Below, one piece after another: positions 2,552 to 51,682 of a stretch of DNA of 64,000 nucleotides. Every line of letters begins with the position of its first letter. Position 1 is the first letter of the stretch. The notes under the pieces are model-generated. The model made no database searches and had not been told where the DNA came from. It saw only the letters and a program-made list of their open reading frames with translations. The stretch comes from an uncultured Holophagales bacterium (GTDB lineage Bacteria; Acidobacteriota; Thermoanaerobaculia; Multivoradales; UBA5704): assembly GCA_963842525.1 (NCBI GenBank), contig CAWJGT010000034.1:480001-544000 (forward strand), read 5' to 3'. The position numbers and the translations under genes were made by a program.

Positions 2552-4684
2552 GTGAGAAACCAGCGATCCCATCATCACCCGTCCCTGTCAGGGCTGGCGC
2601 TCGCGCTGCTGCTCGGGCTCAGCCTGGCGGCTCCCGCCGTCGCACAGCCCATCAAAGAGACCGGCACGTACAAGATCTCGAACGTGTTCAACGCCCGCGC
2701 TCGTTCCGCCATCGCCGCCACCGGCGCGGACATTTTCGAAGTCGGTCACGACTACGTTCTCATCGAAGCGACGGGCCGCGAAGCCAGGGCCTTGAAGCGG
2801 CTGGGCCTGCAGCTCGTGCGGTTCAGAACGCAGGACGATTTTCTCAAGGCATTTCCGGCGGCCGACTCGGCCTATCACGACTACGCCGAAATGGTGGCCG
2901 AGCTCCAGCAGGCCGCGTTCGATCACCCGGCGATCTTTTCACTTTTCTCCATGGGCTTGTCGCATGAGGGGCGCACGGTCTGGGCCGGCAAGATCTCCGA
3001 CAACGTGGGCACCGACGAGGACGAGCCGGAGGTGCTCTTCACGCATCATCAACATGCCCGCGAGCATCTGACCGTCGAGATGGCTCTCTACACCCTGAAG
3101 ATGCTGACCGACGAATACGGAACCGATCCCCAGATCACCAACCTGGTGGATGGCCGCGAGATCTGGATCGTCTTTGACATGAACCCGGACGGCGGCGAGT
3201 ACGACATTGCGACCGGCACCTACCGTTCCTGGCGCAAGAACCGCCAGCCCAACGCCGGCTCCAGCGCCATCGGCACTGACTTGAACCGCAACTGGGGCTA
3301 CAAGTGGGGGTGCTGCGGCGGCAGCAGCGGTTCGACGAGCAGCTCGACCTACCGGGGACCGGCGGCCTTCTCGGCTCCCGAGACGGCGGTGGTGCGGGAC
3401 TTCGTCGACAGCCGCGTGGTCGGCGGCACGCAGCAGATCACGGCTTACATCGACTTTCATGCCCACGCCGAGCTGGTCCTCTGGCCCTACGGCTATACCT
3501 TCACTGATGTGCCGGCCGATATGACCCAGGACGACCACGACGCGTTCGTGGCCATGGGCCTGGCCATGGCGGCCACCAACGGCTACACGCCGGAGCAGGC
3601 GAGCGACCTCTACATCACCGACGGCACGAGCATGGACTGGCTCTACGGCGTTCATCGCATCTTCGCCTTCGCTTTCGAGATGTACCCGGTGACGTCCGGG
3701 CAGGGCGGCTTCTATCCCCCGGACGAGGTGATCCCGGCCCAGACCTCCCGCAACCGCGCAGCGGTCCTCTACCTGCTCGAGCAGGCCGCCTGCCCGTATG
3801 CCGTGATCGGCAAGCAGGTCCAGTACTGCCAGGCGCCGCCGGGCGCGCCGGGATCGCTCTCGGCCACGCCGGGCAACGGGCAGATCAGCCTCACCTGGAC
3901 GGCCGCGAGCGGCGCGACCGGTTACCGCGTCCACCGCGGCACGGCGAGCGGCGGGCCCTACACGACCATCCAAAGCAACCTCACCACCACCAGCTTTACC
4001 AACACCGGCCTGACCAACGGGACGGCTTACTACTACGTGGTGACCGCGACCAACGGAGTGGGCGAGGGCCCGAATTCGAACGAAGCATCGGCCACGCCGG
4101 CGGTTCCGCCGACCGTCGTGACCCTCACCTCGACCGCCGCCCAGGACGGCTGGGTGCTGGAGTCGACCGAAACCTCCAACGCCGGCGGCTCCATCGACGG
4201 CACCGCCGCCACCACCAGCGCTCTACGGGTGGGCGACGCCACCAGCGACCGCCAGTACAAATCCGTGGTCTCCTTCGACACCTCGCCGATCCCCGACGGC
4301 GCCACGATCCTCTCGGCGACCCTGCGCCTGCGCCGCGGCACGTCAAGCGGTAGTAACCCCTTCACCACTCACGGCACCTGCCAGGCCGACGTCCAGACCG
4401 GCGGCTTCTCCGGCTCGACGACGCTCCAGACGGGCGACTTCCAGGCCACGGCGACCGCCGTCCAGGCGGCAAGCCTGAGCAACGCCCCCTCGAACGGGTC
4501 CTGGTCGGAAGGCAGCCTGAACGCCGCGGGTCTGGCAGCGATCAACAAGACGGGGACGACACAGCTCCGCGTCTACTTCAGCCTCGACGACAACGACGAT
4601 GGGGGCAACAACTACATCGGCTACTACTCCGGCGACAACACGATCGCGGCGAACCGGCCGCAGCTCGTGGTGACATACCAGTAA
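2552..4684 (+). CDS. M14 zinc carboxypeptidase (carboxypeptidase T-like) with FN3 and a C-terminal beta domain
   Basis: Signal peptide, HARE zinc motif, WRKNR, DLNRNW, DFH, LWPYGY and FEMYP motifs; C-terminal region paralogous to that of the first ORF. Confidence 0.9.
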
Positions 4685-45463: not shown

Positions 45464-45506
45464 TTTCTCTCGCAGCTTGAAATGATGCTGCTGACGGCCG
45501 TCCTTT

Positions 45507-45750
45507 CCGGCCCAACGGGCCGGGAGAACAGAGCCCAGGGATGAGGCCGCAGGCCGATTCCCTGGGACCCAACGGACCGCCACGATCATGCGGCCTGAAG
45601 GGCCGCGGGAGCCTTCACCAGGGAGCGGAGCCGTCTCGAACAAATCCTCTCGCGGCCCTTCAGGCCGCGGGGTAGATCGGTCTCCTGTGACCCAGGGCAT
45701 CGGCCTGTGGCCGAAGCCCTGGGCTCCGATCTCCCGGCCCGTTCGGCCGG
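45507..45750. mobile_element. Non-autonomous REP/MITE-like palindromic element related to the ends of the Y1 elements
   Basis: CCGGCCCAACGGGCCGGGAGA...GCCCAGGG and the inverted copy, plus GGCCTGAAGGGCCGCG inverted pairs, with no transposase inside. Confidence 0.75.
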
Positions 45751-46078: not shown

Positions 46079-47575
46079 ATGAAGCGATTGCTTGAACTTT
46101 CCAGCGCAGAAGCCAGGAAACACTTCCTTAAGGCGAGCAGTTACTTCAAAGACGACCTGCCCTCCTATTTAAGTTTCGAGCCGATCCTGAACTCGGTGGA
46201 CGCCGCGCTTAATGGGGCAACGTACGCGGCAGTCCAAGCTCACTGTCCGAGCAACTTCCCGGGCGTCAACTACAGTTTCATGGCGAACAAGGACGGAAGA
46301 CTTGCATGGCGTCCCTATGAGCTGATTCATCCGGTCATCTATGTGTCTCTGGTAGATGTCATCTGCCAGCCGGAGAACTGGAAGCTGATTACTGATCGTC
46401 TATCCGAGTTCACCAAAGGCGTTGTTGACTGCTGCAGCGCCCCTGTGATGTCGCTCGACCACCAGAAGGATGTCGCAGCCCAGGTGAGGGGATGGTGGCA
46501 TAAAGTTGAGCAGCGATCTCTGGCTTACTCGTTGGAGTTTAGTCATGTCCTACAAACCGATGTGGTCGATTGCTACGGTTCGGTTTATACGCACAGCATT
46601 TCTTGGGCGCTACATGGACTACCCTACACCAAGGAGAACAAGCAGAAGAAATCTCTTGTTGGAAACAAGATCGACTCGCACATTCAGGCGAGTAGGTACG
46701 GCCAGACCAACGGTATCTGCCAAGGCTCCGTCCTCATGGACTTCGTTGCCGAAATCGTGCTGGGGTATGTGGACGAACTGATCAGCGCAGAAGTGCCGAA
46801 AGCGAACGATTTCCGGATCCTCCGCCACCGGGACGACTACCGAGTGTTTGCCAACAATGACGATCGCGCTGAAGGCATCCTTAAAATTATCAGTGACAAG
46901 CTGCGGATCGTAGGGATGAAGCTTGGAGTATCGAAGACGTTCCTGAGCAGGAACGTTGTTGAGGGATCGATCAAGGCGGACAAGCTGGCAGGCATCGAGT
47001 TGCAGGACCTTGGCGACGCGAATGCCAAGACCATTCAGAAGCAACTCCTGAGACTGCATGCGTTCGGGCAGCGGTTCCCCAATAGTGGCGCGTTGCGGCG
47101 CCTGGTTGCCGAACTGCATACCAGCATTACTGCGCAGACTGAAGCGCCAGACGATCTCGAAGTGCAGGTCGCAATCGCAACAGACATCGGCTTCGTCTCT
47201 CCGGCAACATTTCCTGCTGTTGCGGGCATTCTGAGTCATCTGATCTCGCTCGCCCCACAAGACAAGAAGTCTGTGCTCTGGTCAAAAGTGCGCAATAAGA
47301 TGGCTCGAGTCCCATACAACGGCTACCTGGAGATATGGCTTCAACGGGTGACGCAGCCAAAGGCAGTTGGGATCCAGTTTGATAGCACTGAGGCGATCTG
47401 TCGGATCGTGAATGGTGAAGCGGTCGATCTATGGGAGAACGGATGGATTGCATGCAAGAATGTCAAGGCGGCGGTCGATCCTTCAAAAATCGTGGTCGGG
47501 TCCGTGGAAGATGTTACTGAGGTCGTTCAGCCTGCGGAGGTCGAGCTATTTCAGCAGAATGCATGGGCATACTAA
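46079..47575 (+). CDS. UG/Abi-type defence-associated reverse transcriptase (DRT9/UG28-like)
   Basis: KDGRLAWRP, TDVVDCYGSVYTHSISWA, GQTNGICQGS and LRHRDDY motifs; 498 aa; visibly more AT-rich than the host genes. Confidence 0.85.
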   Translation: MKRLLELSSAEARKHFLKASSYFKDDLPSYLSFEPILNSVDAALNGATYAAVQAHCPSNFPGVNYSFMANKDGRLAWRPYELIHPVIYVSLVDVICQPENWKLITDRLSEFTKGVVDCCSAPVMSLDHQKDVAAQVRGWWHKVEQRSLAYSLEFSHVLQTDVVDCYGSVYTHSISWALHGLPYTKENKQKKSLVGNKIDSHIQASRYGQTNGICQGSVLMDFVAEIVLGYVDELISAEVPKANDFRILRHRDDYRVFANNDDRAEGILKIISDKLRIVGMKLGVSKTFLSRNVVEGSIKADKLAGIELQDLGDANAKTIQKQLLRLHAFGQRFPNSGALRRLVAELHTSITAQTEAPDDLEVQVAIATDIGFVSPATFPAVAGILSHLISLAPQDKKSVLWSKVRNKMARVPYNGYLEIWLQRVTQPKAVGIQFDSTEAICRIVNGEAVDLWENGWIACKNVKAAVDPSKIVVGSVEDVTEVVQPAEVELFQQNAWAY

Positions 47576-48330
47576 GAGCGCCTAACAAAACCGGCCCAAC
47601 GGGCCGGGAGAGCATAGCCCAGGGCTGAGGCCGAAGGCCGATGCCCTGGGTTCACGGGCGCCACCTCCCGGCGGCCTGAAAGGCCGCGAGAGTCTTCAGT
47701 CCCACACGTAGCGCTCGTCAAATTCGATTTCATAAGCCTTGAGGAACGCACGGAGCTCCTCTTGAAACGACTTGACTCGATGATGCTCGCGCTGGTTGCG
47801 GATGTAGGCTCGAACGTCTTCGACCTGCGATTGGCTCACCGAGAATGCACCGAATCCCGCCTGCCAAAAGAAGCTCGCAAACTGCGGGCCTCGGCCCCGA
47901 AGCCAGTCGTTCGAGCTTTTCTTGAGGTGGCCGACAACGTCGCTCAGCGCCTCGGTCCGTGCGAGGAGAAACAGACCGTGCAAATGGTCGGGCTCGGTGT
48001 TGATTTCGATCGGGAGACAGCCGAGGCCTTTGAGCGTGCCGCCCATATAGGCATGGAGATCGGGGCGAATCTCGGCAGGCAGGGTTCGTTCGCGTTCCTT
48101 CGTCGAGAAAATGAGATGGACGTAGATTTTGGAGAGGGATTGAGCCATGGCGCCGGTGACTCCAGCACCTGTCTGCGGATCTGTCAAGGATCTGTCAAGC
48201 GGGGAGCTCTCGCGGCCTTTCAGGCCGCCCGGAGGTGGTGCCCATTGACCCAGGGCATCGGCCTTCGGCCTCAGCCCTGGGCTAGATTCTCCCGGCCCGT
48301 TGGGCCGGCAACCGGTTTTGTTAGGCGCTC
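47576..48330 (-). mobile_element. IR-bounded Y1 transposase element, copy 1
   Basis: GAGCGCCTAACAAAACCGG...CCGGTTTTGTTAGGCGCTC ends and ~100 bp inverted REP-like arms around tnpA. Confidence 0.85.
47696..48148 (-). CDS. tnpA: IS200/RAYT-like Y1 HUH transposase
   Basis: HLIFSTK, DHLH, WQAGFGAFSVS and YIRNQ motifs. Confidence 0.92.
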   Translation of the reverse strand: MAQSLSKIYVHLIFSTKERERTLPAEIRPDLHAYMGGTLKGLGCLPIEINTEPDHLHGLFLLARTEALSDVVGHLKKSSNDWLRGRGPQFASFFWQAGFGAFSVSQSQVEDVRAYIRNQREHHRVKSFQEELRAFLKAYEIEFDERYVWD

Positions 48331-48669
48331 TTAGCTACTGTCGGTCCGCCACGATCAAATCGCGGGAAGGCCACGCCGTAAGGTAGCTGATGATCGATGT
48401 CTCCAAGTACACAAGAGCAGCCAAGCTCCGAGACCACCACCTCGAAAGAGCTACGGCGCCGGTTCCAACACCCATGGGTTAGAGCGCCTAAAAAATCCGG
48501 CCCAACGGGCCGGGAGAGCATAGCCCAGGGCTTCTATGTGGGCCACCGGTGTCAAGCGTCTCGGGGTGGTGGTTCGTCGTTTTCCCTTTCCTGGCCCCCC
48601 CTCCTGTCACCGGTTTTCTCGCTTCTTGGTTCTCAGTCCGTCTGGCGCTTGCCCGGAGTGTGCAGGGAC

Positions 48670-48835
48670 CTGGGGAGTCGTCCTTTCCAGCTTCTATCCG
48701 TGCTGACCTCTTTGGGTCAGGACACCAAATGCAGCATGCGCTGTCGAGCGACTCAGGCAAGCTCTCGGAGCGGCCCCATCTGAGAGAACGGTTCGGAAGC
48801 CGAACCAAGCCCTGGGCCGGGCACGCTCCACCAGT
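48670..48835 (-). ncRNA. IS110 bridge RNA (target- and donor-binding loops)
   Basis: Internal loops carry GCCCAGGGCU/CUCAG (target) and GCAUUU/AUAGAAG (donor), matching the observed junctions. Confidence 0.75.
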
Positions 48836-48864
48836 CGTTTCTCTCCGAGCTTTTTCCTCCCAGA

Positions 48865-50001
48865 TTACTTCGTCTTCAGCTCAGCACCCTCAGGAATCAC
48901 ACCGTAGTCCAGATAGCGCCACAGCGCGATCAGCAGCTTGCGGGCGAGGGCCACGATCCCCACCCGCCGAGATCGGCGGCTCCCAGGACCATAACGCTCC
49001 TGAAACCACAAGCTCAGGCGACTCTGCGGTTGGAAGCGCAACCAGCCCCAAGCGATCTCGATCGCCATCGCCCGGACCCGACGATTCCCCGCCTTGCTGA
49101 TCCCTTGTTCGTGGTTGACCGTGTCACCGCTCTGATAAGGCATCGGCGTCAGACCCGCCAAACCGGCCACCTCACGGCGGTTGCGGAACTGCCGCCAGCC
49201 GAAGAACTCCACCACGAACAGCCAACCACTGTTGCCTCCGATCCCCTTGAGCTCTTGCAGCCGCTGCACCTTCTCCGTCGCTTCCACGCTGGCCGTCCGG
49301 CGAAACCGCTCGAGCTCGGCAATCTGACTCTCCAGCACAGCCAGACGCTCGCCCTCTCGCCTCAAACGCTCCCGCAAGCTCGCCAGCAGCCTCTCGCCGT
49401 TCCACTGCCTCGCCTGATCCAGCTGCTGCAGAAAGCCCTTGCCGACTTTCACCCCCCGAGCCCCCACGCTGGCCAGCAGGCCCTTGATCCGATTGGTGTG
49501 GGCCGTGCGCTCCTGCTTCAGAGACTCAAGCTCCCGAGCCAGGTGACGCTCGTCCTCCTGCTCGGGGGTCGGCGCGTGCGCTACCCCGAACACCTTCTTC
49601 TCCCCGCGCTCGTAACGGATCAACAACGACAGCAACTTCTCCACGTCCACCCCATCCGTCTTGGCCCGGCGATGCCGCCGATTCACCTCGATGCTCGAGG
49701 AGTCCATGACAACGTTTTCCACTCCCTCCGACAGCAGGAACCGGTGGAGCCAGAATCCATCCCGTCCGGCCTCGTAGCAACTCACCACCCGAGCCGACTC
49801 CGGCACGCCAAGGCGATGTTTGGCCCGCGCGATCTCCAGCATCAGCCCGGCAAGGTCCCCGGCTGCAACTGTCCGCTGACTTGCCCTCCGTCCAGCCTCT
49901 ACACCAAACCCCAGCTTCCACTCGCTGGCGCCGAGCTCCAGGGCCATATGTAACACCGCCTCCGTTCGCGTAGACTCTGCAATGCGGGTTGTCTGGTTCA
50001 T
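48865..50001 (-). CDS. IS110 family recombinase/transposase
   Basis: ALELG, CYEAG, AKTDGVD (RuvC-like DEDD variant), GLTPMPYQSG and ISKAGN motifs. Confidence 0.95.
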   Translation of the reverse strand: MNQTTRIAESTRTEAVLHMALELGASEWKLGFGVEAGRRASQRTVAAGDLAGLMLEIARAKHRLGVPESARVVSCYEAGRDGFWLHRFLLSEGVENVVMDSSSIEVNRRHRRAKTDGVDVEKLLSLLIRYERGEKKVFGVAHAPTPEQEDERHLARELESLKQERTAHTNRIKGLLASVGARGVKVGKGFLQQLDQARQWNGERLLASLRERLRREGERLAVLESQIAELERFRRTASVEATEKVQRLQELKGIGGNSGWLFVVEFFGWRQFRNRREVAGLAGLTPMPYQSGDTVNHEQGISKAGNRRVRAMAIEIAWGWLRFQPQSRLSLWFQERYGPGSRRSRRVGIVALARKLLIALWRYLDYGVIPEGAELKTK

Positions 50002-50156
50002 CGGGGTTCTCCTTTCTAACCGCTAAAGTTCCCCCGAAACATACAACCGGCGACCCGCTTTTGCATCCCCCGCCCTGCATAGCATCTGAGGCCGAAGGCC
50101 GATGCCCTGGGTTCACGGGCGCCACCTCCCGGCGGCCTGAAAGGCCGCGAGAGTCT

Positions 50157-50609
50157 TCAGTCCCACACGTAGCGCTCGTCAAATTCGATTTCATAAGCCT
50201 TGAGGAACGCACGGAGCTCCTCTTGAAACGACTTGACTCGATGATGCTCGCGCTGGTTGCGGATGTAGGCTCGAACGTCTTCGACCTGCGATTGGCTCAC
50301 CGAGAATGCACCGAATCCCGCCTGCCAAAAGAAGCTCGCAAACTGCGGGCCTCGGCCCCGAAGCCAGTCGTTCGAGCTTTTCTTGAGGTGGCCGACAACG
50401 TCGCTCAGCGCCTCGGTCCGTGCGAGGAGAAACAGACCGTGCAAATGGTCGGGCTCGGTGTTGATTTCGATCGGGAGACAGCCGAGGCCTTTGAGCGTGC
50501 CGCCCATGTAGGCATGGAGATCGGGGCGAATCTCGTCAGGCAGGGTTCGTTCGCGGTCCTTCGTCGAGAAGATGAGATGGACGTAGATTTTGGAGAGGGA
50601 TTGAGCCAT
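50157..50609 (-). CDS. tnpA: IS200/RAYT-like Y1 transposase, copy 2
   Basis: Near-identical to 47696-48148. Confidence 0.92.
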   Translation of the reverse strand: MAQSLSKIYVHLIFSTKDRERTLPDEIRPDLHAYMGGTLKGLGCLPIEINTEPDHLHGLFLLARTEALSDVVGHLKKSSNDWLRGRGPQFASFFWQAGFGAFSVSQSQVEDVRAYIRNQREHHRVKSFQEELRAFLKAYEIEFDERYVWD

Positions 50610-50940
50610 GGCGCCGGTGACTCCAGCACCTGTCTGCGGATCTGTCAAGCGGGAGCTCTCGCGGCCTTTCAGGCCGCCCGGAGGTGGTGCCCGTTGACCC
50701 AGGGCATCGGCCTTCGGCCTCAGCCCTGGGCTAGATTCTCCCGGCCCGTTGGGCCGGCGGCCGGTTTTGTTAGGCGCTCTAAGCTGGGCTGGCGGTCCGC
50801 CACGATCAAATCGCGGGAAGGCCACGCCGTAAGGTAGCTGATGCTCGCATGTCTCCAAGTCACAAGATGGCAGCTCAAGCCTTCCGAGAGCAGCGGCACC
50901 TCGAAAGAGCTACGGCGCCGGTTCCACCACCCATGGGTTA

Positions 50941-51682
50941 GAGCGCCTAACAAAACCGGCCCAACGGGCCGGGAGAGCATAGCCCAGGGCTGAGGCCGAA
51001 GGCCGATGCCCTGGGTTCACGGGCGCCACCTCCCGGCGGCCTGAAAGGCCGCGAGAGTCTTCAGTCCCACACGTAGCGCTCGTCAAATTCGATTTCATAA
51101 GCCTTGAGAAACGCACGGAGCTCCTCTTGAAACGACTTGACTCGATGATGCTCGCGCTGGTTGCGGATGTAGGCTCGAACGTCTTCGACCTGCGATTGGC
51201 TCACCGAGAATGCACCGAATCCCGCCTGCCAAAAGAAGCTCGCAAACTGCGGGCCTCGGCTCCGAAGCCAGTCGTTCGAGCTTTTCTTGAGGTGGCCGAC
51301 AACCTCGCTCAGCGACTCAGTCCGTGCGAGGAGAAAGAGACCGTGCAAATGGTCGGGCTCGGTGTTGATTTCGATCGGGAGACAGCCGAGGCCTTTGAGC
51401 GTGCCGCCCATATAGGCATGGAGATCGGGGCGAATCTCGGCAGGCAGGGTTCGTTCGCGTTCCTTCGTCGAGAAAATGAGATGGACGTAGATTTTGGAGA
51501 GGATTGAGCCATGACGCCGGTGACTCCAGCACCTGTCTGCGGAGCTGTCAAGCGGGAGCTCTCGCGGCCTTTCAGGCCGCCCGGAGGTGGCGCCCGTTGA
51601 CCCAGGGCATCGGCCTTCGGCCTCAGCCCTGGGCTAGATTCTCCCGGCCCGTTGGGCCGGCAACCGGTTTTGTCAGGCGCTC
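50941..51682 (-). mobile_element. IR-bounded Y1 transposase element, copy 3
   Basis: Same ends; tnpA 51061-51512 has a 1-nt deletion near 51501. Confidence 0.85.

Follow-up and report, generated by a model that had tools for sequence, protein, structure and literature searches.

The window analysed here, a stretch of 64,000 nucleotides on contig CAWJGT010000034.1 (positions 480,001 to 544,000) of an uncultured Holophagales bacterium (Acidobacteriota; assembly GCA_963842525.1), very probably contains an intact insertion sequence (IS) of the IS110 family with the layout of the IS1111 group, in which a guide RNA encoded 3' of the recombinase gene (tnp) is programmed against a hairpin that resembles a repeated extragenic palindrome (REP). 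The first-pass annotation of this DNA had proposed an IS110 element with a CT core and a two-loop bridge RNA directed against the hairpins that flank Y1 transposase genes. The protein profile NF033542, the matches between guides and flanks and their covariation bear this out, and the junctions, stems, guides and hairpin were found again base for base at the positions that had been given. No new mechanism is involved; the element clearly adds a further example to a mechanism that was first described in 2024, and its three sibling variants with identical ends, several copies and empty sites make it an unusually clean natural demonstration of bridge-RNA programmability.

Boundaries, Copies and Sibling Variants

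The whole IS occupies 48531..50087 on the minus strand and measures 1557 bp when the CT core is counted at both junctions, one of the two CTs being the target's own. The left junction reads GCCCAGGG (48523-48530), CT (48531-32) and then TCTATG, and the right junction reads ...GCAT, CT (50086-87) and then GAGGCC. Non-coding stretches of 332 nt downstream of tnp (48533-48864) and 84 nt upstream of it (50002-50085), both counted without the core, surround the gene. As expected of the IS110 family, the element has no long terminal inverted repeats. A candidate subterminal inverted repeat is short and imperfect, CTATGCAGG (3 nt inside one end) versus CTATGTGGG (1 nt inside the other), in which 7 of 9 positions match.

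A DNA search of the same genome (9.95-Mb assembly in 34 contigs, 68% G+C) recovered three variants of the IS. Variant A, to which the window copy belongs, is present in five full copies at about 100% DNA identity and one truncated copy. The two copies of variant B are 90% identical to the window copy across query positions 111-1557 and the four copies of variant C 77% across positions 108-1557. All copies have the ends CTTCTATG...GCATAGCATCT / CTTCTATGTGG...CTGCATAGCATCT in common, and CT was found at both junctions of all 11 full copies as well as at the single junction that the truncated copy has kept. The right flank of variant A is GAGGCC in each of the five full copies, the left flank is GCCCAGGG in four of them and GCTCAGGG in the fifth, and the left junction of the truncated copy is identical to that of the full ones. 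Empty sites elsewhere have a single CT (GCCCAGGG-CT-GAGGCC), with no duplication beyond the core, and all six variant A insertions have one orientation relative to the REP-like unit. The truncated copy (C9:1835724-1836563) keeps the RNA region and the last 168 codons, after which the sequence switches abruptly to unrelated DNA.

The copies might instead have spread by duplication of REP/Y1 regions rather than by transposition, with the IS itself a dead relic. The window does hold tandemly duplicated Y1 units, the open reading frame (ORF) of copy A3 is broken and one copy is truncated. However, four of the five full A copies keep identical intact 378-aa ORFs at about 100% DNA identity, their left flanks diverge outside the REP-like unit and their right flanks past its second hairpin, the IS is found in just one of the three tandem Y1 units, and empty paralogous sites are present. 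Duplication of a dead element is thus extremely improbable, and the IS at 48531..50087 is apparently intact and recently active.

Target Guides Change With the Target

The three siblings differ in where they insert, and the predicted RNA differs with them. In variant A the flanks GCCCAGGG-CT-GAG go together with the guides GCCCAGGGCU and CUCAG, in variant B the flanks GGGCGGAG-CT-GAG with GGGCGGAGCU and CUCAG, and in variant C the flanks GCGCCAGG-CT-TTA with GCGCCAGGCU and UAAAG (the right flank of variant C is CT-TTATGCC; one of its copies has CCCCAGG in its flanks). When A, B and C are aligned downstream of the stop codon, the RNA scaffold is near-identical and the target guides have changed exactly with the target, while the donor loop (GCAUUUGG...GGAUAGAAGC) and the element ends are unchanged. 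This combination is hard to explain otherwise than by a programmable target loop next to a fixed donor loop. Inspection of the flanks of other copies, which the first-pass annotation had suggested as a check, placed the A copies in the REP-like unit with CT junctions, and the B and C targets match the changed guides.

The first target guide repeats the plus-strand sequence of the left flank plus core, so that its pairing partner is the opposite strand. Seen in the direction of tnp, the top strand AG-CCCTGGGC is the complement of GCCCAGGGCU, and CUCAG is complementary to the bottom strand. With the CT strand taken as top, the geometry is that of the left target guide (LTG), right target guide (RTG) and handshake guide (HSG) of IS621. 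At the DNA level, each loop of the two-loop RNA would accordingly be able to read both strands.

The same relation was found in other genomes. Of 101 related genomes, 14, the host genome included, encode the recombinase at E <= 1e-40; the loci fetched have the same ends and a recognisable RNA scaffold, and the comparative set consisted of 14 elements plus one on a Cupriavidus plasmid. For 11 elements with a readable right flank, the longest match anchored at the core between the first guide region and the element's own flank was 10, 10, 10, 10, 8, 9, 9, 2, 8, 5 and 2 nt, compared to a mean of 3.9 nt to foreign flanks (off-diagonal), and none of 100000 permutations of RNA and flank reached the observed match sum. 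This set excludes L028 (uncertain end), L037 (same element as L026), L029 (anchors not located) and L036 (contig stops before the right flank), and for L022 the right flank was added manually. The Cupriavidus necator plasmid element, at 51% protein identity, has the same layout, guides and Glu when read by eye.

One relative, L022 (G019:C49, about 2631-3100; 81% protein identity), also uses the same REP family, but its position there is different (..AT-AG-CCCAGGGC) and its orientation reversed, and 3 nt of the consensus ...CATAGA-AG are missing from its RNA-side end. It was considered as a contradiction of the model and rejected as such, since its guide GCCCUGGGCU matches its own flank AG-CCCAGGGC.

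Donor Guides and Candidate Handshake Bases

The donor loop covaries with the element ends. The first donor guide is GCAU where the element end starts with ATGC, GGAU where it starts with ATCC and GUUU where it starts with AAAC. It thus tracks the end fully in three of four end classes, and in the remaining class (ATAC with GUAA) in three of four letters. The second donor guide shows a matched change in L029, where the end CATAGG-AG goes with AUAGGAG. An initial proposal that GCAUUU as a whole matches GCAT-CT has to be narrowed: the GCAU part stands, and the two core letters UU, which are not conserved among relatives, are dropped from the match.

In each loop, the letters that follow the second guide agree with the other DNA partner. 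After the second donor guide comes C or G, and in 13 of 14 elements this is also the base with which the right flank begins in tnp sense. After the second target guide comes AU (AA in L031), in agreement with the start of the tnp-proximal end (AT; AA in L031). These are the positions of the handshake guides of IS621 (Hiraizumi et al., 2024; PMC11208158). Covariation of donor guides and handshake bases in an RNA encoded at the 3' side suggests that the strand-exchange logic of IS621 carries over to this layout.

A different origin of the internal matches was weighed, namely that they are relics of the target repeat, left by imprecise excision or REP recombination, and that the protein reads a DNA hairpin. 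Targets A and C are GC-rich hairpins, and a target stem-loop has been reported as a second layer of specificity for ISPpu10 (PMC12288879; bioRxiv 10.64898/2026.03.19.712850). Relics, however, would not be expected at the same two scaffold positions in every variant, nor on opposite strands, overlapping at the core and co-changing with three unrelated targets while the scaffold stays constant. Target B forms no obvious hairpin by eye, and covariation on the donor side cannot stem from capture of a target. We therefore regard this explanation as highly improbable and return to a guide RNA as the source of specificity.

On this basis the following route can be proposed. An RNA of about 195 nt, probably in recombinase sense, would fold into two internal-loop domains. 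In the target loop, GCCCAGGGCU would pair with one strand of the left flank plus CT core and CUCAG with the other strand of the core plus right flank. In the donor loop, GCAU and AUAGAAG would pair likewise on the joined ends of a circular intermediate, with the presumed junction ...GCAT-CT-TCTAT... (in tnp sense ...CCCACATAGA-AG-ATGCTATGC...). Directly 3' of each second guide, 2-3 bases fit the other DNA partner and may act as the handshake guides of IS621 do. A recombinase tetramer with E-E-D-D and Ser residues would then exchange strands at the CT core and insert the circle without duplication beyond the core. The site so programmed would fall within a REP-like hairpin, in its 5' arm and loop; copies of this hairpin are dispersed over the genome.

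Structure, Strand and Expression of the Predicted RNA

The RNA scaffold is conserved across 13 aligned elements. RNAalifold found 22 consensus pairs in this alignment, 13 of them with compensatory changes, which make up the target-loop closing stem, the bases of both inner hairpins and one small hairpin. A hairpin is present at the inner position of the target loop in all aligned relatives, with differing sequences, and in the donor inner hairpin the pairs 148-153 / 179-183 of alignment A2 have compensatory changes in 3-4 sequences. In the predicted fold, the donor domain appears multi-branched. An RNA is presumed to be made from the region, with the putative strand and ends given in Table 1.

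The strand cannot be taken from the guide matches alone, because both DNA strands are read. The guide RNA could be real and yet be transcribed from the plus strand, antisense to the recombinase, with loops that carry the complements. For the window copy the plus strand indeed folds slightly better (-89.6 kcal/mol, z = -2.59) than the recombinase sense (-85.1 kcal/mol, z = -1.79). Across 13 elements (L029 and L049 left out) the sense strand is the more stable one in 10, with 89 G-U pairs versus 66 in antisense, although folding energy as a test of strand gives support that is weak at best. Three other considerations led us to assign the recombinase-sense strand. Firstly, the IS621 geometry, in which a first guide ending in CU pairs with the strand opposite the CT core, arises from a sense RNA only. 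Secondly, the tested RNAs of the IS1111 type lie downstream of tnp and were taken to derive from a junction-promoter transcript (PMC11187229). Lastly, the conserved outward-facing TTGACA would give sense transcription from a circle. Taken together, an antisense RNA seems very unlikely.

TTGAC occurs at the identical distance from the end in all 14 elements for which that end was available. By analogy with IS621 and ISEc11, the TTGACA would be the -35 box of a promoter that is completed only at the circle junction.

Expression was looked at in assembled contigs of public runs. A 171-nt contig in one soil metatranscriptome run spans 48677-48827, and its indels point to a relative of the element. 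It is a weak hint of expression, since strand and ends cannot be read from contigs and DNA may be present in RNA libraries; stretches of the element that no contig covers in those runs are uninformative. Contigs that join 48530 to 50086 occurred in three runs. Excision was considered as their cause and rejected, because the near-identical empty units at 47583-47692 and 50950-51060 explain the joins best.

The Recombinase

With the NCBIfam profile NF033542 ('IS110 family RNA-guided transposase') the 378-aa protein reaches 183 bits, above the cut-off of 140, and with Pfam Transposase_20 it reaches 63 bits. E22, E77, D116 and D119 of the RuvC-like domain, together with S291 of the Tnp domain, are its putative catalytic residues. 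HMMER places K114-T115-D116..D119 on the KTD..D motif of IS621 and S291-G292 on its catalytic SG; in this alignment D116/D119 and S291 correspond to IS621 D102/D105 and S241. The AlphaFold2 model (mean predicted local distance difference test score 74.8) has an RNase-H-like strand order, in which E22 ends beta-1 and E77 ends beta-4. Best Foldseek matches of the model were the synaptic complexes of IS621 and ISCro4, over the full length, at E about 5e-11. HMMER left the N-terminal domain unaligned to IS621, even with a 51-sequence profile, and the putative equivalence of E22 to IS621 D11 thus rests on the secondary structure of the model and on family alignments.

Position 22 was counted in two sets. 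The 120 closest database proteins, with the window protein among them, have E in 103 cases, D in 16 and a gap in 1; for representatives of 50%-identity clusters, 150 in all, the counts are 121 E, 19 D and 10 gaps. Since E dominates both sets, Glu is a trait of the clade and a conservative exchange rather than a quirk of the window copy. No paper with both 'EEDD' and 'IS110' turned up in a literature search, which shows only that this label is unused in the literature searched.

Database relatives of the recombinase number in the thousands, with 854 cluster representatives at E <= 1e-30; the few that are named are 'IS110 family transposase' proteins of metagenome-assembled genomes (MAGs) of Acidobacteriota/Thermoanaerobaculia. 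A tblastn search of plasmids (E <= 1e-5) gave mostly rhizobial and Burkholderiaceae records, and the sole named family was ISMno20, at 48% identity. The copy of ISMno20 that was fetched (L048) has a truncated N-terminus, and no RNA scaffold could be recognised downstream of it. In the identity matrix of the Siddiquee supplement, ISMno20 groups with ISMno25, ISAzs35 and ISRel9, and the portion of its row from the ISPst6 column on gives 18.5-25% (PMC11187229). The search of the Durrant supplements other than file 2 did not recover ISMno20; file 2 may list the clade.

These relatives could tentatively be read as a large uncharacterised IS110 branch (854 representatives, from MAGs of soil Acidobacteriota to Burkholderiaceae and rhizobial plasmids) with an E-E-D-D active site, a complete IS621-like bridge RNA (two loops plus handshake guides) that lies on the 3' side and is inverted relative to the CT polarity and, in the present genome, three co-resident specificities with identical donor ends; we consider this possible but doubtful. 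If true, the siblings would amount to a naturally occurring series of orthogonal target loops that share one scaffold, each a parasite of its own repeat family, and two of the three targeted families would be associated with Y1 transposases. Engineers would find in this clade recombinase/RNA pairs that have diverged and whose first guide is long (8+2 nt).

Observations That Weigh Against the Assignment

A number of findings count against an RNA-guided IS110 element as described above, or against parts of that description. On the protein side, the Pfam profile of the RuvC-like domain, DEDD_Tnp_IS110, reaches only 22 bits (cut-off 29), the N-terminal 60 residues are left unaligned to the NCBIfam profile, and both the correspondence of E22 to D11 and its catalytic role are presumed. 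On the side of the guides, two of the 11 elements in the permutation set, L026 and L032, fail the strict first-guide test because their guide core letters are CC/CG or UU and not CU. In the second target guide, the second base counted outward from the core mismatches the flank (3-nt flank part, read by eye) in L022, L023, L024, L025, L027 and L036. The core letters of the first donor guide vary (UU, AG, UG, CC, UA, UC, GU, CU), while the DNA core stays CT. As to the RNA, the stronger antisense fold of the window copy has been given above, Rfam has no family at threshold for the bridge RNA region, and the closing helix of the donor loop is absent from the RNAalifold pairs, in an alignment by MAFFT that handles variable hairpins poorly. 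A promoter scan found no sigma-70-like promoter in the linear element, and the expression data are assembled Logan contigs.

Target Repeats and Their Y1 Genes

The target sites belong to repeat families. Target A has 13 exact empty 13-mers genome-wide, 12 of them in one family of REP-like units, target B has five, three of which lie in a repeat of about 110 bp, and all 19 of target C lie in one family, whose stem-loop CCTGGCGC-TGAA-GCGCCAGG ends at the core. By chance, 0.4 to 1.7 such 13-mers would be expected from base composition. The A-type unit consists of the hairpin CCGGCCCAACGGGCCGG, the long hairpin CCCAGGGC...GCCCTGGG and the hairpin GCGGCCTGAAAGGCCGC, in that order, and intact near-identical units occur in the window at 47583-47692 and 50950-51060. 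REPs are said to have been surveyed as IS targets by Tobes and Pareja in 2006.

Each of the three tandem Y1 genes in the window is flanked by REP-like units in inverted orientation. As the first-pass annotation had it, the target recurs in the arms of these units, with unoccupied exact sites in both arms of all three: exact empty 13-mers lie at 47617(+), 48282(-), 50731(-), 50982(+) and 51634(-), and the IS occupies the (+) arm of the middle unit. Its description of a gene-less inverted pair as a miniature element with altered sites is likewise correct, with GCCCAGGG-AT-GAG in the left arm and, reverse-complemented, GCCCAGGG-CT-TCG in the right arm. For genome biology, a mobile element would here land safely in the end hairpins of repeats associated with a Y1 transposase, and the altered sites of the derived miniature element would escape it.

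Two of the Y1 genes were scanned and score 81-82 bits on Pfam Y1_Tnp; on NCBIfam the protein reaches only 16 bits with the model for REP-associated tyrosine transposases (RAYT) and 54.4 bits with the IS200 model (cut-off 55). This Y1 type is present as a full gene only at the window locus, and the REP-like unit has 55 blastn matches genome-wide, an arrangement that looks closer to a REP/RAYT-style system than to many IS200 copies. The three tandem units (47696-51501) share 98-100% protein identity, which would be unusual for a RAYT-type single-copy gene. That the Y1 genes might make a guide system of the IS200/IS605 type was considered and rejected, as their sole link to the IS is the flanking hairpin used as target. 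Rfam matches to Acido-Lenti-1 at 47592-47629, 48498-48542 and 50957-50994(-), at 19-20 bits with a gathering threshold of 37, fall on the REP-like units and not on the RNA; the motif may be related to such repeats.

A second Y1 gene, 43% identical to those of the window, lies at C9:225299-225754 (region C9:224809-225838) and is flanked by C-type hairpins. Two sibling ISs thus each use the repeats of a different Y1-associated family. The repeat of target B lies inside a repeated segment of about 4.6 kb (C27:60778-65586, C23:423011-427593, C23:154147-160182), of which a 1.5-kb piece recurs on C9, C25, C4 and C19 and may be another mobile element. Between the gene-less REP-like pair and the first Y1 unit, an ORF at 46079-47575(+) encodes a 498-aa reverse transcriptase (Pfam RVT_1, 36 bits). 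It is far under the NCBIfam cut-offs (Drt4, 115 vs 450; Drt3b, 103 vs 350) and may be a defence-type or orphan reverse transcriptase of an undescribed group.

Table 1. Positions of the insertion sequence features, the predicted RNA and the surrounding repeats and genes in the window (the left and right donor guides are abbreviated as LDG and RDG).
Feature	Position	Strand	Basis or remark
Recombinase gene	48865-50001	-	378-aa ORF, NF033542
Predicted bridge RNA region, about 195 nt	48640..48836	-	Fold, scaffold conservation, RNAalifold
Outer stem CUGG/CCAG	48834-48831 / 48645-48642	-	Encloses target- and donor-binding domains (predicted fold)
Target loop stem GGAGCG/CGCUCC	48829-48824 / 48772-48767	-	Encloses target guides and inner hairpin
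First target guide (LTG-like) GCCCAGGGCU	48808..48817	-	Matches left flank plus core; variants, permutation
Target loop inner hairpin GGUUCGG CUU CCGAACC	48790..48806	-	Fold
Second target guide (RTG-like) CUCAG	48784-48780	-	Complementary to + strand CT-GAG
Candidate handshake guide AUG	48779-48777	-	3' of CUCAG; matches first bases of tnp-proximal element end
Donor domain closing stem GCUUGCC/GGCAAGC	48762-48756 / 48653-48647	-	Fold
First donor guide (LDG-like) GCAU plus UU	48727..48732	-	GCAU = + strand end ...GCAT before core
Donor loop inner hairpin GUG..CUGACC / GGUCAG..CAC	48700..48725	-	Fold, RNAalifold
Second donor guide (RDG-like) AUAGAAG	48697-48691	-	Complementary to + strand CT-TCTAT
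Candidate handshake guide CU	48690-48689	-	3' of AUAGAAG
Outward-facing TTGACA, candidate -35 box	48550..48555	-	17 nt from core, RNA-side end
Left half of interrupted REP-like unit	48486..48530	+	Hairpin CCGGCCCAACGGGCCGG, spacer, GCCCAGGG
Right half of interrupted REP-like unit	50088..50156	+	GAGGCCGAAGGCCGATGCCCTGGG and hairpin GCGGCCTGAAAGGCCGC; abuts 3' end of second Y1 gene
IS200-like Y1 gene 1 of three tandem	47696..48187	-	Pfam Y1_Tnp 82 bits
Y1 genes 2 and 3	about 50160-50648, 51064-51501		tblastn
Gene-less inverted REP-like pair	45500..45750	.	Both potential sites altered

Comparison With Known Systems

Three features had at first been taken as new, and none of them is. A guide RNA 3' of the recombinase is a hallmark of the IS1111 group (PMC11208160; PMC11187229), for which a bridge RNA was predicted in the right end of 93% of elements (Durrant, 2024; PMC11208160). 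Glu at the first DEDD position is the majority state among the cluster representatives. Repeated or mobile-element targets have been published as well: REP for ISPa11, attC for ISKpn4, IS3-family transposase genes for ISEc21 and also transposon ends (PMC11187229), and REP again for ISPpu9, which with ISPpu10 was studied in Pseudomonas putida (PMC12288879; bioRxiv 10.64898/2026.03.19.712850).

With the IS1111 group (ISEc11, ISPa11, ISKpn4) the element shares a long non-coding region downstream of tnp, a guide matching the top strand 5' of one matching the bottom strand and an outward -35-like box at the RNA-side end. Subterminal inverted repeats are 7-17 bp in that group (PMC11187229), to which the short and imperfect candidate here may correspond. 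Like that of ISPa11, its target is a repeated structured sequence. IS1111 proteins have 330-350 aa (Siddiquee et al., 2024; PMC11187229), whereas the recombinase here has 378 aa and Glu instead of Asp at the first catalytic position; it is of IS1111 type by layout and, as far as the plasmid tblastn search tested this, does not appear close to named IS1111 members.

IS621 and ISCro4 (PDB 8WT6-8WT9, 9T56; PMC11208158) likewise have a CT core, a two-loop RNA with LTG/RTG and LDG/RDG guides on both strands and handshake guides beside the second guide of each loop, the positions where the candidates are found here, and the KTDxxD motif, the catalytic SG loop and the overall fold of the protein are the same. 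In contrast to these systems, the present element encodes its RNA on the 3' side of the gene, and RNA and gene together, taken as one module, run inverted with respect to the ends and their CT polarity. Sequence identity is about 17-20%, with alignment at the sequence level confined to the C-terminal domain. The guides differ in length, with a longer first one (8+2 nt) and a shorter second one (3+2 nt), and the donor domain would differ in its apparent branching.

Insertion in a single orientation into repeated extragenic palindromes is known from ISPpu9/ISPpu10, and variant C, like ISPpu10, inserts directly 3' of a GC-rich stem-loop. Unlike those elements, the present one belongs to another phylum (its closest named proteins are from Acidobacteriota MAGs) and another recombinase clade, and it has co-resident siblings, each with its own repeat family. 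Lastly, guide bases that differ in step with the target were described as 'natural redirection' for ISEc21/ISMch6, and ISEc21, which inserts into IS3-family genes, also uses another mobile element as target (PMC11187229). That case consists of a single ISMch6 copy with three changed bases (PMC11187229), whereas here three variants with 6, 2 and 4 copies have 8-nt and 3-nt guide segments that are fully rewritten.

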